Made by a program: the position numbers and the translations under genes. Shown here in pieces: positions 26,561-53,302 of a stretch of DNA of 64,000 nucleotides (within the stretch, counting starts at the first letter, position 1; each line of letters starts with the position of its first letter). This stretch comes from Eledone cirrhosa (lineage: Eukaryota), in the NCBI GenBank assembly GCA_964016885.1, contig OZ024740.1, positions 267,468,001 to 267,532,000 on the forward strand, given 5' to 3'. The notes below the pieces were generated by a model. The model saw nothing but the letters and a program-made list of their open reading frames with translations. It was not told the origin of the DNA and did not search any database.

Positions 26561-26731
26561 GATGGACCATAACGCAGCAGAGTACTCAATACTTAGGGTA
26601 GTAGAGTGGGTAATAGAAAAATGTTTGACCCCCGACGGCAGAGCTCAAGCTGTTGCAACGGCTATTTCTAGCTGGACTAAAATAGCCGTCGAAACAGCCT
26701 GAGCTCTGCCATCGGGGTCAAACATTTTCCT
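26561..26731 (-). mobile_element. ~190-bp TA-targeting fold-back element, family F (half-hammerhead)
   Basis: Shared tail ggaccataacgca..gtactcaatacttagggtagtagagtgggtaatag plus ~55-bp-arm hairpin; flanked by (TA)n. Confidence 0.85.
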
Positions 26732-27693
26732 ATATATATATATATATACATATATATATATATATATATATAAATAATATATATACATATAAATAATATA
26801 TATACATATAAATATATATATAATGCCCTATTAAAAATTTGAGTGGTGGAGATTGTTCATAAAATATGGGTATAATTTCAGTGGATTTTTGGAAAATCTT
26901 ATAGCTGTTCTGCTGTTTCAAGAAAATTATATAAGGGTTATATGACAAAATAAAATTGGGAATGGTCTCAGGAATAGGCAAAACAATAGCAAAAAAGAAA
27001 ATAAAAAAAAAATCAAACATTTTCAACAGAATCCTCATTTTTGTGACAGTATTTTTACCTATTTGAGAAAAAAAATCAATGGTATAGATTGAGATTAATG
27101 AAAAATGTATTGATATAAGGTATCACGAATGTAAAAGAATTTTCAATAAATTAAAATTTTTCTCTAAAACAGAGAAAGAAAAAATACAATTATTAGATCT
27201 AGTTTATGGGACAACTGCCATAAACCAAACATCAATGTTATTATCACAAACTCTTGGTAAATATGAAAAAGTGTGTATATATGCATGCATATATGCACAC
27301 ACACATATATATATATATATATATATATATATATATATATATATATATATATATATATATATATACATACATGCATATATATATACATACAAGCATATAT
27401 ATACAGTATATATACATACATATATATATACATACATACATGCATATATATATACATACAAGCATATATATACAGTATATATACATACATATATATATAT
27501 ACATACATGCATATATATACAGTATATATACATACATATATATATATACATACATGCATATATATATAGTATATATACATACATATATATATATATATAC
27601 ATGCATATATATATATACATACATGCATATATAAATATATACATACATGCATATATATATACATACATGCATATATATATGTAAATATATATA

Positions 27694-27972
27694 TCATCAT
27701 CATCATCATCATCATCATCGTTTAATGTCCGTGTTCCATGCTTGCATGGGTTTGGACGGGAGTTTTCCCACTTGAGGCAAGAGTGGTTGTCTTGCTCGCA
27801 TAGGACTGTCTGGCGGGTTTTCTACAGTTGATGCCCTTCCTAACACCAACCACATTTACAGTGTGGGGCTGGGAGGTTTTTACCGTGTTGCCTACACGGC
27901 CACATTACAGCGTGGACTGTGTGTTTTTTTTTGTCGTGAGGCCTACACGATCTCATTTGTTTCGGCCTGGAT
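27694..27972 (-). mobile_element. RTE LINE 3' terminal fragment
   Basis: (CAT)n then cgtttaatgtccgtgttccatgcttgcatggg; colinear with 40488-40760. Confidence 0.85.
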
Positions 27973-28654
27973 TTTATATATATATACATATACATATATA
28001 TATACATACATGCATATATATATATACATATATATATATATACATATACATACATGCATATATACATACATATATATATATATACATACATATATATACA
28101 CATACATGCATATATATATATACATATATATATATATATATATATATATACATATACATACATGCATATATATATGTACATATATATATATATATATATA
28201 TATATACATATACATACATACATATATATACATACATGCATATATATATACATACATATATATACATACATGCATATATACATATATATATATATATATA
28301 CATATATATATACATACATATATATATATATACATATATATATATATATATACATATATACATATATATATATATATATACATATATATATATATACATA
28401 TATATATATACATATATATATATATACATATATATATATACATATATATACATATATATATATACATATATATATACATATATATATATATATATACGTA
28501 CATATATACATACATATATACATACATATATACATATATATATATATATATACATACATATATATATATACATATATACATACATATATACATACATATA
28601 TACATACATATATATATACATACATATATATATATACATACATATATATATACA

Positions 28655-29065
28655 TGGTGGCTGCCAACTCGTTTTCGAGTACGGCCACTACTTTATATCC
28701 ATGTAGGAGAACCCCTACCGATGCGCTGAACGAGTGTGACTTTTCAGTCCGGCCAGCGACTTGAAAACTTTGGTACAAACACTACACTTGTGACAATTAT
28801 TGACACATAGTGCTAGGCCCATGGTACCATGTGACGACAAGTGCAGAGAGATCTCCAGATATAAAGCAATGCCTGTGCCGTGAAGCTTTTATAGTGAGCA
28901 AAGGCACTGCACAAAGCCATTCCCACTCTCTTAACCAAGATGATATTTACCAAAAAGAAGAACAAGTCAACATTATTGGATATCATCAGGGTTGCAGGTG
29001 TTATATCAGAGTTTTCCTTCTCCTAGAATTCTGCCTTGACAAAGGCTAAGGGGTCATCTCTCCCA
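28655..29065 (-). mobile_element. Interspersed repeat inserted in TA/TACA tracts (copies 34112-34432, diverged 20850-21065); RTE 5'-UTR-like
   Basis: Near-identical to the 34112 copy; minus strand contains ctaggagaaggaaaactctgat, a motif typical of RTE 5' regions. Confidence 0.55.
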
Positions 29066-30635
29066 CATATATATATACATACATATATATATACATACAT
29101 GTATGTATACGTACAAATATACATACATACATATATACATATATATATACATACATATACATACATATATATATACATACATATATATATACATACATAT
29201 ATATATATATATACATACATATATATATATACATACATATATATATATACATACATATATATTTATACATACATATATATATATACATACATATATATAT
29301 ATACATTCATATATATATATACATACATATATATATATACATACATATATATATATACATACATATATATATATATATATACATACATATATATATATAT
29401 ACATACATATATATATATATATACATACATATATATATATATATATACATATATATATGTATACATACAAATATACATACATACATATATACATATATAT
29501 ATACATACATATACATACATATATATATACATACATATATACATACATATATATATACATACATATATATATATATATACATACATATATATATATACAT
29601 ACATATATATATATACATACATATATATATATACATACATATATATATATACATACATATATATTTATACATACATATATATATATACATACATATATAT
29701 ATATACATTCATATATATATATACATACATATATATATATACATACATATATATATATATACATACATATATATATATATACATACATATATATATATAT
29801 ACATACATATATATATATATATACATACATATATATATATATATATATACATATATATATATATATATACATATATATATTTATACATACATATATATAT
29901 ATACATACATATATATATATATACATACATATATATATATATACATACATATATATACATACATATATATACATACATTATATATACATACATATATATA
30001 TATACATATATATATATATACATATATATATATACATATATATATATACATATATATATATATATACATATATATATATATATACATATATATATATATA
30101 CATATATATATATCTATACATATATATATATATACATATATATATACATATATATATACACATATATACATACATATATATATATACATATATATATATA
30201 CATATATATATATACATATATATATATACATATATACATACATATATATATATACATATATATATATACATATATACATACATATATATATATACATATA
30301 TACATACATATATATATATACATATATATATATATACATATATATACATATATATATATATACATATATATACATATATATATATACATATATATATATA
30401 CATATATATATATACATATATATATATATAAGTATGTACACGTACATACATATATGTATACCGACGTACAGTAGTATGTATATATATATATACATACATG
30501 CACACATATATATATGCACGTATGGATTCACCGAACATTTATTATAATGCTCGGTGTGTTTGTAAACAAACATCCCGTATTAAGCCGTAGTGTCTAGCAA
30601 CCACCGTTGCTCGTTTGTTCAACACTGACAAAGGA

Positions 30636-30678
30636 ACGCTGTACTAGTTTCAAGCTTGTTAGCTATCGTCAGCAACGT
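30636..30678 (-). ncRNA. Minimal type-I hammerhead ribozyme (array copy 1)
   Basis: acgttg CTGACGA t-agct-aaca-agct-t GAAA ctag TA cagcgt; stem I 6 bp, stem II 4 bp, palindromic stem III ACUAGU, GUA site. Confidence 0.88.
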
Positions 30679-50967: not shown

Positions 50968-52158
50968 TACTCAACCACCACCACCACCACCACTACACTC
51001 AACCATTACCACCACTACCACCACTACACTCAACCATTACCACCACCAACACTACCACTACACTCAACAACCACCACCACTACCACCACTACACTCAACT
51101 ACCACCACCATTACCACCACTACACTCAACCATTACCACTACCACCACCACCACCACCACCACATTCAACCATTACCACCACTACCACCACTGCACTCAA
51201 CCACTACCACCACTGCACTCAACCATTACCACCACTACTACTACTACACTCAACCATTATTATCACCACCATCACCACCACCCTCAACCATTACCACCAT
51301 GACTACCACCACTACACTCAACCATTACCACCACCACCCTCAACCATTACCACCACCACTACTACTACACTCAACCATAACCACCACCAGTACTACCACC
51401 AATACTGCTACACTCAACCATTATTATCACCACTATCACCACCACACTCAACCATTACCACCACCACTACTACACTGAACCATTACCACCACCACTACTA
51501 CACTCAACCATTACCACCACCAGTATACCACTACACTCAACCATTACCACCACCACTACTACTACACTCAACCATAACCACCACCAGTACTACCACCAAT
51601 ACTGCTACACTCAACCATTATTATCACCACCACTACTACACTCAACCATTACCACCACTACACAATCATTACCACCACTACTACTACGCTCAACCATTAT
51701 CACCACCACTACTACACTCAACCATTACCACCACTACTACTACACTCACGCATTACCACCACCAGTACTACCAATACACTCAACCATTACCACCACCACC
51801 ACACTCAACCATTACCACTACTACTACTACTACTACTACTACACTCAACCATTAACACCACCAGTGCTACTACTACACTCAACCATTACCACCACTACTA
51901 CTACACTCAACCATTACCACCACCACCACTACTACACTCAACCATTACCACCACTACTACACTCAACCAATACCACCACTACTACTACACTCAACCATTA
52001 CCACCACCACACTCAACCATTGCCACAACCACTACTACACTCAACCATTACCACCACCACTACACTCAATGATTACCACCACCACTATTACTACACTAAA
52101 CCACTGCCACCACCACCACCACCACCACCACCACTACTACACTCAACCACCACCACCA
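50968..52158. repeat. Minisatellite: acactcaaccatt core plus variable (acc/act)n, ~22-30-bp units
   Basis: Direct reading, roughly 40 units. Confidence 0.95.
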
Positions 52159-52224
52159 TAATTTCTATGAAACTTTTGGCTTCCTTTCTTTCTGTTGTCT
52201 CATCACCAGATGGTAAAAGAAAGA

Positions 52225-52395
52225 GAGAGAGATAGATTAAAATGGAGAGAGAGAGAGAGAGAGAGAGAGAGGGAGAGAGAGAGAAAGAGAGAGAGAGAGA
52301 GAGAGAGAGAGAGAGAGAGAGAGAGAGAGAGAGAGACAGACAGACAGAAAGGGAGAAGGAAAGAGAGAGATAGAAAGGGGGAAGGAGAGAGAGAA
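52225..52395. repeat. (GA)n microsatellite
   Basis: Direct reading. Confidence 0.95.
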
Positions 52396-52915
52396 CCAAA
52401 TTGCAAGTAACAAGCAAGCTATACTTAGAAATTCAGGTGATAGTACTAGCAAGGTAAATTAAACTTCTGGAGAATGAAACAACTTGAAAAGCTAATGTTT
52501 AAGCCAACAACCAATTTCTCCTCTTCTCCTGTTTTAAGACTATATTCCCCTCTTACTGCCACTCTAACCCTTATACTACGTTTTAAGAGCACCTCCCTAC
52601 ATTCCCCTCTTACTCCCACTAACCCTTATACTATGACTACAACTCTTACCCTTTTATTGTTTTTTTTCTTTTTTGTTTGTGATTCTCTCTCTTTCTCTCC
52701 TGGATGCCTGCTTCTATTATTACAGTAAAGAAATATGTGTGTGTGTGTGTGTGTACACATATGTCTGTATGTGTATGTGGTAGGTTTTGAGAAATAGTAA
52801 AATGAATAAATACACTAATTAATAAACAAATGATATATATATATATATATATATATATATATATAAGAAGAAGTGTAAGTCAACAGGTTAAAATTAACTT
52901 CATTTATTAATATTC

Positions 52916-52974
52916 GCTGCAATATATATTTCGGTGATAACCATTACTCAACAGCTATGACCTCATCAGGCAGC
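52916..52974 (-). ncRNA. Minimal type-I hammerhead ribozyme in TA-flanked insert 52865-53087
   Basis: Minus: gctgc CTGATGA ggt-c-atagct..ggttat-c-acc GAAA tatata TT gcagc; perfect stem I, G10.1-C11.1 pair, palindromic stem III, AUU site. Confidence 0.88.
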
Positions 52975-53120
52975 TAGAACTTGAACAGGAAAAAAACAGG
53001 GAAACATAATGGTGGAATAGAGTTTACCTTGTTACTTCGTTGATATGCCCAGATCCGGAAAGTGGTGTTGTTAATTCAAAGCACTGATATATATATATAT
53101 ATATATATATATACATATAT

Positions 53121-53302
53121 AATGAAGGAAGTGTGGTAAGGATCCAGGTGGACCATAACGCACCAGAGTACTCAATACTTTGGGTAGTAGAGTGGGTAAT
53201 AGGAAAAGTGTCAGGACCCCGACGGCAAAGCTCAAGCAGTTTCAACGGAAATAGCCGTTGAAACAGCTTGAACTCTGCCGTCAGGGTCCTGCCTCTTTTC
53301 CT
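53121..53302 (-). mobile_element. Family F TA-targeting fold-back element (diverged)
   Basis: Same tail plus shorter hairpin; (TA)n both sides. Confidence 0.85.

Follow-up and report, generated by a model that had tools for sequence, protein, structure and literature searches.

Mirror-image stubs of a Hydra-clade Penelope-like element in the genome of Eledone cirrhosa and their probable formation at insertion

Family F consists of five repeats of ~190 bp each in a 64,000-nt stretch of the genome of Eledone cirrhosa (contig OZ024740.1, positions 267,468,001 to 267,532,000), hereafter the window. Judged from sequence, the copies are head-to-head pairs of 5'-truncated 3' ends of a Hydra-clade Penelope-like element (PLE) in (TA)n, each pair probably arising at insertion from two starts of reverse transcription on one RNA. 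The anatomy of the copies, their parent element, the two outer end points, the restriction of a tail to one arm, the likeness of the two arms, the independent and variable centres, and a hot spot of inner ends are direct observations.

All five copies lie where a sequence-only reading of the window had placed them, and each is embedded in (TA)n. The 20-nt core word GAATTAGCCGTCGAAACGGC has six matches in the window at three or fewer mismatches, compared with none in 100 shuffles. A copy features a near-perfect hairpin and, in addition, an 81-nt one-sided stretch named Z here and called the tail in that reading. Each arm carries the last ~57 nt of the hammerhead module of the element: it begins inside the 3' strand of hammerhead stem II and continues through GAAA, stem III, GUC, and the 3' strand of stem I. 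At its outer end, one arm stops after GTTCC (module base 116) and its partner extends via Z to CGTT (base 197); both outer ends adjoin TAT/(TA)n. The stretch GTC GAAAC GGCTTGAGCTCAGCC GTC is found in both arms—G12-A13-A14, the A15.1–U16.1 pair, stem III, and the GUC cleavage triplet are all present. In contrast, the other strand of a type I hammerhead core, C3-U4-G5-A6-N7-G8-A9, is lacking: no CUGANGA (CTGANGA) core strand occurs in any of the five window copies, and the inverted arm occupies its place. The earlier description of a hammerhead 3' half with its CUGANGA side replaced by an inverted copy thus applies to all five, as does the placement of the turn in stem II. The claim that the arms match their own partner rather than the family is likewise confirmed, with 19/211 mismatches within copies and 158/842 against the opposite arm of another copy.

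The arms were positioned by alignment to a 197-nt module ruler. Copy a has a tail-bearing arm on the minus strand (26560..26681, module bases 56–172), consisting of the hammerhead 3' half and a Z that is shortened at its outer end, and a tail-less arm on the plus strand (26680..26733, bases 66–119) that ends with GTTCC/TAT in (TA)n. The tail-bearing arm of copy b (34710..34847, minus strand, bases 60–197) includes the complete 81-nt tail and meets the tail-less arm (34848..34907, plus strand, bases 60–119) at the centre GGAC|GTCC without a spacer. Copy c is a lopsided join: its tail-less arm (38827..38878, minus strand) covers bases 68–119, and its tail-bearing arm (38880..38974, plus strand) covers only bases 103–197, starting 3 nt past the hammerhead cleavage site. 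Copy d combines a tail-less arm on the minus strand (50045..50109, bases 55–119) with a tail-bearing arm on the plus strand (50106..50237, bases 65–197). Copy e is old and diverged, with its tail-bearing arm on the minus strand (53121..53248, bases 72–197) and its tail-less arm on the plus strand (53248..53304, bases 65–119).

The connection to a parent element is visible in locus L121, a 3.7-kb version of the palindrome shape. It consists, in order, of (TA)n, the reverse complement of Z, the reverse complement of the hammerhead, 1.5 kb of inverted body, 582 unique nt, and a direct copy that ends in GTTCC and (TA)n without Z. Its arms are 1.54 kb long and 90% identical, and the direct copy carries frameshifted pieces of an open reading frame (ORF) with CNCPDGSVC and VIYQ...YIGLT. 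A protein search of the genome with this ORF piece yielded 61,792 first-look candidates; it also uncovered arrays in which units of 3,531 bp with open frames of 784 aa are repeated in tandem. The 784-aa frame features SDKTG at residue 184, YRDD at 415, CNCPDRSIC (CxCX5C) at 639, VIYQ...YIGLT after 657, and a GIY-YIG-like C-terminus. According to the main text of Craig 2021 (PMC8557442), Hydra-clade PLEs are characterized by (TA)n insertion, a single ORF, a C-terminal GIY-YIG, DKT rather than DKG, a CxCX5C linker, and a canonical hammerhead. [quoted passage not shown] Database relatives of the ORF have ~700 aa and lie on contigs of ~2.5–3 kb, and the top match carries the GIY-YIG domain PF01541. 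On the strength of motifs, relatives, and architecture, the parent is assigned to the PLEs, with the Hydra clade as its probable place.

In the tandem units, the module is followed directly by Z and then by the ORF leader, the first Met coming 93 nt further on. In tandem full-length elements, the ORF leader adjoins Z without a break, and Z thus corresponds to the RNA between two start points. Elements end after GTTCC (base 116) or after CGTT (base 197), and TAT follows either end. Every haplotype found among the stubs is also present in long hammerhead-bearing elements.

In the 3.0-Gb genome, 39,529 exact matches were found to a 23-nt arm word with 55 free bases after it; the reversed control has none. 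The first 100 matches, which lie on contig 1 between 0 and 18.7 Mb, were sorted by eye. Of these, 66 are arms from 47 copies that are joined in inverted orientation near stem II, 17 read through the whole of stem II, 8 are joined to Z or other sequence, and 9 end in the flank. With the 17 read-through rows excluded, the remaining 83 rows were taken as 59 regions and scored on the 197-nt ruler as an unbiased sample. Z is present on exactly one arm in 57 of the 59 joined copies, and the other two are degraded; a second method found one tail in 44/45, on the left in 22 and on the right in 22. These 57 copies and the five of the window are single inverted pairs without a catalytic core. Two rare variants carry a tail on both sides of the palindrome (L007:1400-1800 and L003:2386-2574).

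The arms of one copy resemble each other far more than those of different copies: 69/2,101 positions (3.3%) are mismatched within copies, whereas 2,000 shuffles of partners average 9.2% and never fall below 6.9%. At seven common haplotypes, 48/55 copies of another, query-biased sample are concordant, while random pairing would make 45.5 of the 55 discordant. Copies of the same haplotype differ in their centres, overlaps, fillers, and arm lengths, and these variable centres within a haplotype indicate that each palindrome was made anew at insertion. The independent origin of the palindromes proposed in the sequence-only reading therefore holds for every insertion, with same-haplotype copies turning at different bases.

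The inner ends fall on module bases 55–67 in 39/57 tail-bearing and 49/57 tail-less arms, with a mode at 59–60, and the two inner ends of one copy are not tied to each other. In near-symmetric pairs there is no rule as to which arm reaches further (the tail-bearing one in 8, the other in 6, with 2 ties). Lopsided joins do have a direction: the tail-bearing arm is the shorter one in 13 of those that differ by at least 8 nt (n=19) and in 10 of those that differ by at least 20 nt (n=11). Where a long tail-less arm is joined to a tail-bearing copy that starts inside Z (bases 147–153), the join uses a shared TCTGG, which is consistent with two cDNAs being joined. In L034:1828-2021, L131 (C1:5226686), L185, and L010:2660-2876, a run of 6–24 A (T in the sense orientation) is found at the inner end near bases 56–59; such runs may have been added without a template at run-off or have arisen by slippage on the loop.

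The hot spot at bases 55–67 is shared by insertions of other shapes, as partner-less simple insertions and long copies end at the same place as the stub arms. The module runs into the ORF leader at 228 places in the genome. Among 30 of these that were fetched, 8 start at bases 55–64 with an inverted arm in front; a further 10–12, of which several share an array, run on for at least 670 nt, and the remaining ones break off at scattered positions. The hot spot so also applies to cDNAs that had travelled far, and it is not absolute. Among 13 loci, 12 of which were selected for long ORFs, four start at unit bases 267–407 and none near base 60. The same stub anatomy recurs in a second family of hammerheads (stem II ...GGCATTCAGTCTGGAACTAGCTG), for which 392 exact arm words were found genome-wide and which ends at the analogous A|GTCTGG, with ~17 of 100 listed rows reading through as judged by eye. 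Some copies of this family lie in (CA)n and not in (TA)n.

The clustering of turns at 55–67, also in long copies and in the second family, points to a discrete 5' end of the RNA at this place. The motif TYA|GTY at the turn point is common to three families and agrees with the usual initiator pattern. For the D. virilis Penelope promoter, an initiator-type start is described, as far as the excerpted text of Schostak et al. 2008 goes, and by analogy the motif and this promoter may hint at a transcription start. A start of transcription at the initiator-like TYA|GTY is the first preference for the cause of the end at base 60, at about even chances; a structural stop comes second as a considerably weaker candidate, an RNA cut in or beside the stem II loop is a doubtful third, and a small share is left for other causes. 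Several further candidates were rejected: RNA polymerase III A and B boxes have the wrong spacing to the 5' end; a hepatitis delta virus-like or second hammerhead fold cutting at base 60–62 lacks suitable helices as judged by eye; a 3' splice site or trans-splicing would place a constant leader between the arms, and none is seen; and a stall limited to the first bases after initiation does not agree with long copies ending at the same place.

A course of insertion that would produce these copies can be outlined. The element's nuclease would cut the (TA)n target on both strands, and a complementary DNA (cDNA) would be primed by each 3' end, with one cDNA starting at the proximal and the other at the distal site of the same RNA. 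The cDNA from the distal site would follow behind and displace the first; given this displacement of the leader by the follower, the tail-bearing cDNA would be expected to abort more often. Both cDNAs would run to the 5' end of the RNA or to a strong stop at bases 55–67, within stem II on its 3' strand. A template jump or microhomology would then join the two antisense cDNAs, with an overlap of 0–2 nt or a few filler bases. As two cDNAs of one RNA are joined, a palindrome would result whose arms are identical at birth.

Several points weigh against this reading. That there was one RNA is deduced from haplotype concordance, and two RNAs from one dominant locus would look identical; moreover, 2 to 7 of the 55 copies are discordant, including two clear hybrids (L003_1501 and L013_1500). 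The in vitro work of Frangieh 2024 (PMC11167929) found no strand difference in the choice of start site and does not predict a strict one-tail rule. The stop is not absolute, as the read-through of long copies shows: at least 9 of the 13 loci selected largely for long ORFs and 16–22 of the 30 fetched copies read through the internal module. Only copies with the exact 23-nt word in one arm or both enter the sample, which was drawn from the initial 18.7 Mb of a single contig, and junction coordinates are uncertain by ~2 nt. The ORF has no match in the Pfam and NCBIfam profile libraries or among PDB sequences. Lastly, the single contig of one RNA run lies upstream of the module, and contigs do not reveal 5' ends.

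The alternative that survives best, though it is unlikely, keeps the double priming but lets each DNA end copy a different RNA, for example the strands of a hammerhead RNA dimer held together by the GAGCUC loop of stem III. This loop is a palindrome, PLE hammerheads acting as dimers are a published idea (Cervera and de la Pena 2014, as far as the part of the text at hand goes), and the rare hybrids, whose left and right arms belong to different haplotypes, are what two RNAs would give. The concordance of 48/55 copies, for which random pairing gives ~10, argues against it, and so does the one-tail rule in 57/59, since RNAs that each offer both start sites would not be expected to obey it. The two objections may be softened if the two RNAs share one locus and the sites are set by the geometry of the dimer.

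The sequence-only reading had proposed self-priming at the ribozyme stem. In such a model, a single cDNA, primed at the distal site, would fold back at stem II and prime itself, and the second arm, a copy of the first, would be ended at the boundary between the GTTCC end and Z by TA microhomology with the target. Head-to-head arms with overlaps of 0–2 nt and small fillers, near-identical arms within a copy, and copies that turn exactly at the natural stem III hairpin (L015_433) would all agree with such a snap-back. The lopsided joins do not, since the excess of the longer tail-less arm (in 13/19, and in 10/11 with differences of at least 20 nt) has no cDNA template; in L121, this excess amounts to 582 nt in 3.7 kb. 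The tail-bearing arm should regularly be the further-reaching one in symmetric pairs, yet the count is 8 to 6 with 2 ties, and insertions without a partner end at the same bases, as do long copies. Together with the tail on exactly one arm (57/59), this makes self-priming improbable, and this part of the earlier reading is not supported. A related candidate, annealing of cDNAs through stem II, was dropped as well: under that model the natural loop should persist at the centre, and it does so only in a minority.

A palindromic master element, that is, a non-autonomous hairpin transcribed and copied whole with its arms kept complementary by selection or repair, is more improbable still. The hairpin is long and stable, and the outer boundary GGAAC/GTTCC is the same in all subfamilies; however, this boundary is explained by the proximal start site, which long elements use too. 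In addition, copies of one haplotype differ in centre, filler, and arm length; no mismatch is common to a subfamily; all stub haplotypes recur in long hammerhead-bearing elements; and lopsided, one-armed, and tandem variants are common. Three further classes were discarded: a foldback or miniature inverted-repeat transposable element-type DNA transposon, as the unit is asymmetric with its one-sided tail, the centre varies by copy, and the arms are a retroelement 3' end that 5'-truncated and lopsided forms retain; a retrozyme without long terminal repeats (non-LTR), as head-to-tail tandems with complete hammerheads are not what is seen, rare tandems aside (at L015 and in a 299-bp array on contig C2); and Helitron or short interspersed element readings, whose ends do not fit.

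The part of the hammerhead that the stubs lack is found in their relatives. Arms joined to TCNTCAG within 6–60 nt give 133 pattern matches, compared with none in the control, many of the 133 being chance. Complete type I hammerheads recur among them as a class that reads GGGAATTACCC-CTGAGGA-G...long imperfect stem II...C-GAAA-C GGCTTGAGCTCAGCC G-TC|GGGGTCC, and L096, L098, and L104 have CTGAGGA...GAAA...GTC with all three stems. Relatives with an upstream CTGANGA and stem I, which the sequence-only reading had proposed to look for, thus exist. A hand-drawn hammerhead structure laid on 16 long relatives pairs 88.9% of 503 cells, compared with 27–51% when the partners are slid, and the AU, CG, GC, GC, and CG pairs of stem III are invariant in 16/16. 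Covariation in this set is weak (6 cells changed on both sides, a number reached by 14/500 shuffles) because the sequences are close to each other. Rfam reports no hammerhead at the gathering score in the window, at E≤10 in two copies, or at E≤0.05 in the window. This was first taken as counting against a ribozyme and was dropped once Rfam was seen to miss the canonical long relatives too, which renders the Rfam negatives uninformative.

The core itself varies between subfamilies. In the youngest, ORF-intact subfamily it reads TTGAGAA, with U3 and A8 as a compensated C3–G8 pair (L198:1170-1200, a tandem unit; also L189, L196, L219, L222, L187, L190, L192, and L238). Other subfamilies have CTGAGAA (G8A alone), TTGAAAA, or TTGATAA. 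As far as sequence can tell, either the ribozyme would be dispensable or the U3–A8 core may still cut.

Genome-wide, DNA searches returned 1,030 to 4,320 first-look candidates each, and 40 candidates were scored per search; the tail Z alone gave 4 candidates, its words being masked as too common. An alignment of 100 copies reveals at least three subfamilies that differ at several arm positions, each difference being mirrored on the opposite arm, and a loop region that varies among individual copies. In stem III, an A-to-T difference is mirrored across the arms yet disrupts the local stem III pair, so that it is the likeness of arm to arm that is kept and not the ribozyme helix. The outer boundary GGAAC/GTTCC is common to all subfamilies. 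The fastest-varying segment between subfamilies is formed by module bases 104–114 (alignment columns 104–116), which read TCCTACTCG, TCTTACTGG, TCATACTTT, or TTAAACATT. It belongs to the 3' strand of stem I, where it faces a 5' strand that hardly varies (GGAATTACCCC), and so lies unpaired in an internal loop. Tandem forms were also encountered: in L015:1737-2018, a head-to-tail pair has its first unit cut at CCTGGTTCC and joined to GTCCAGAA of the next, with 27 nt of inverted tail in front. At C2:356030082-356032011, seven consecutive matches form a head-to-tail array with a period of 299 bp that consists of the module, the tail, and the start of the ORF leader and looks like a retrozyme-type tandem from the same element. 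Lopsided, one-armed, and tandem variants are common among the copies.

Two other inverted structures lie in the window. A near-perfect palindrome of ~180 bp with outer ends ...TTTATCTGATGAAAACACAAATATTAT occupies positions 35102-35280; in Rfam it resembles, below threshold, a generic microRNA hairpin, and it may be the mirror stub of another hammerhead family. An 843-nt inverted repeat with 100% complementary arms at 30789-31631 and 31738-32580, 106 nt apart, is either a very young inverted duplication or an assembly artefact.

L1 twin priming, reportedly put forward by Ostertag and Kazazian in 2001, is said to proceed by priming of both cut target ends on the RNA, the second internally, giving an inverted join. 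The inverted and direct parts of such L1 joins are neighbouring, non-overlapping pieces of the RNA, whereas the arms of Family F cover the same RNA stretch; this stretch must therefore be copied twice.

Among known PLEs, the Hydra-clade elements in the main text of Craig 2021 (PMC8557442) are like the parent in their (TA)n target, partial tandems, inverted 5'-truncated copy, and tail at one end only. Family F differs from them by having no ORF and only the 3' half of the ribozyme. In addition, the tail is 81 nt here and 30–40 nt there, the unit 3.5 kb here and generally <3 kb there, and that main text describes neither a preferred truncation point nor arm-pairing rules. For the mechanism, the closest system is that of Frangieh 2024 (PMC11167929), in which a PLE protein, predicted to be a dimer, nicks and extends both strands and starts at two adjacent internal RNA sites, the tail being the stretch between the two. 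This element, Poseidon PAc, is similar to the parent of Family F in having its hammerhead at the junction of pLTR and ORF, and uncleaved RNA is its main template in vitro. However, it belongs to another clade and uses another target; its start sites are not homologous to the target, whereas here both precede UAU beside a (TA)n target. In vitro, the choice of start site does not differ between strands, compared with exactly one tail in 57/59 genomic copies, and a stop in stem II is not among the reported features.

Animal non-LTR retrozymes (Cervera and de la Pena 2020, PMC7229834; Li et al. 2026, 10.64898/2026.07.22.740005; as described in the portions of text at hand) are, like Family F, non-coding, PLE-derived, hammerhead-bearing, and very abundant. 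Retrozymes feature head-to-tail tandems, complete ribozymes, and circular RNA, whereas Family F features single inverted pairs without a catalytic core. The words "palindrom", "tail", and "stem II" do not occur in the preprint text of Li et al. 2026, supplements aside.

The kind of insertion is already known, as PLE insertions with an inverted truncated copy and a one-sided tail have been described. In the texts of Craig 2021, Frangieh 2024, and Li 2026, supplements aside and with literature searches aimed elsewhere, neither a strict one-tail rule nor arms from the same template were found, nor the more frequent abortion of the tail-bearing cDNA or a 5' end in stem II common to two families; none of these is claimed to be unpublished.

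The five hairpins are non-coding PLE stubs, likely produced by two reverse-transcription starts on one RNA—an ordinary by-product of a known element and a very clean record of its insertion. In annotation, these perfect hairpins should not be taken for microRNA precursors, foldback transposons, or ribozymes, none of which they are. PLE integration is known from one in vitro system only, and this genome holds tens of thousands of minimal insertion products that can be read as experiments: one tail, one template, and a sharp end in stem II constrain the mechanism with regard to coupled start sites, an RNA copied twice, and the start of the template RNA. A more detailed scheme can be offered tentatively. 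The RNA would start inside its own ribozyme, at TYA|GTY on the loop side of stem II, with only a dead half-ribozyme at the 5' end and a complete ribozyme at the 3' end; a telomerase-related, dimeric RT would copy this one RNA twice, as leader and follower, from two sites 81 nt apart, and engaging the 5' copy of these sites would leave mirror stubs. If this is true, the tens of thousands of 190-bp stubs would be the genome-wide footprint of a coupled two-site initiation that is not seen in vitro.

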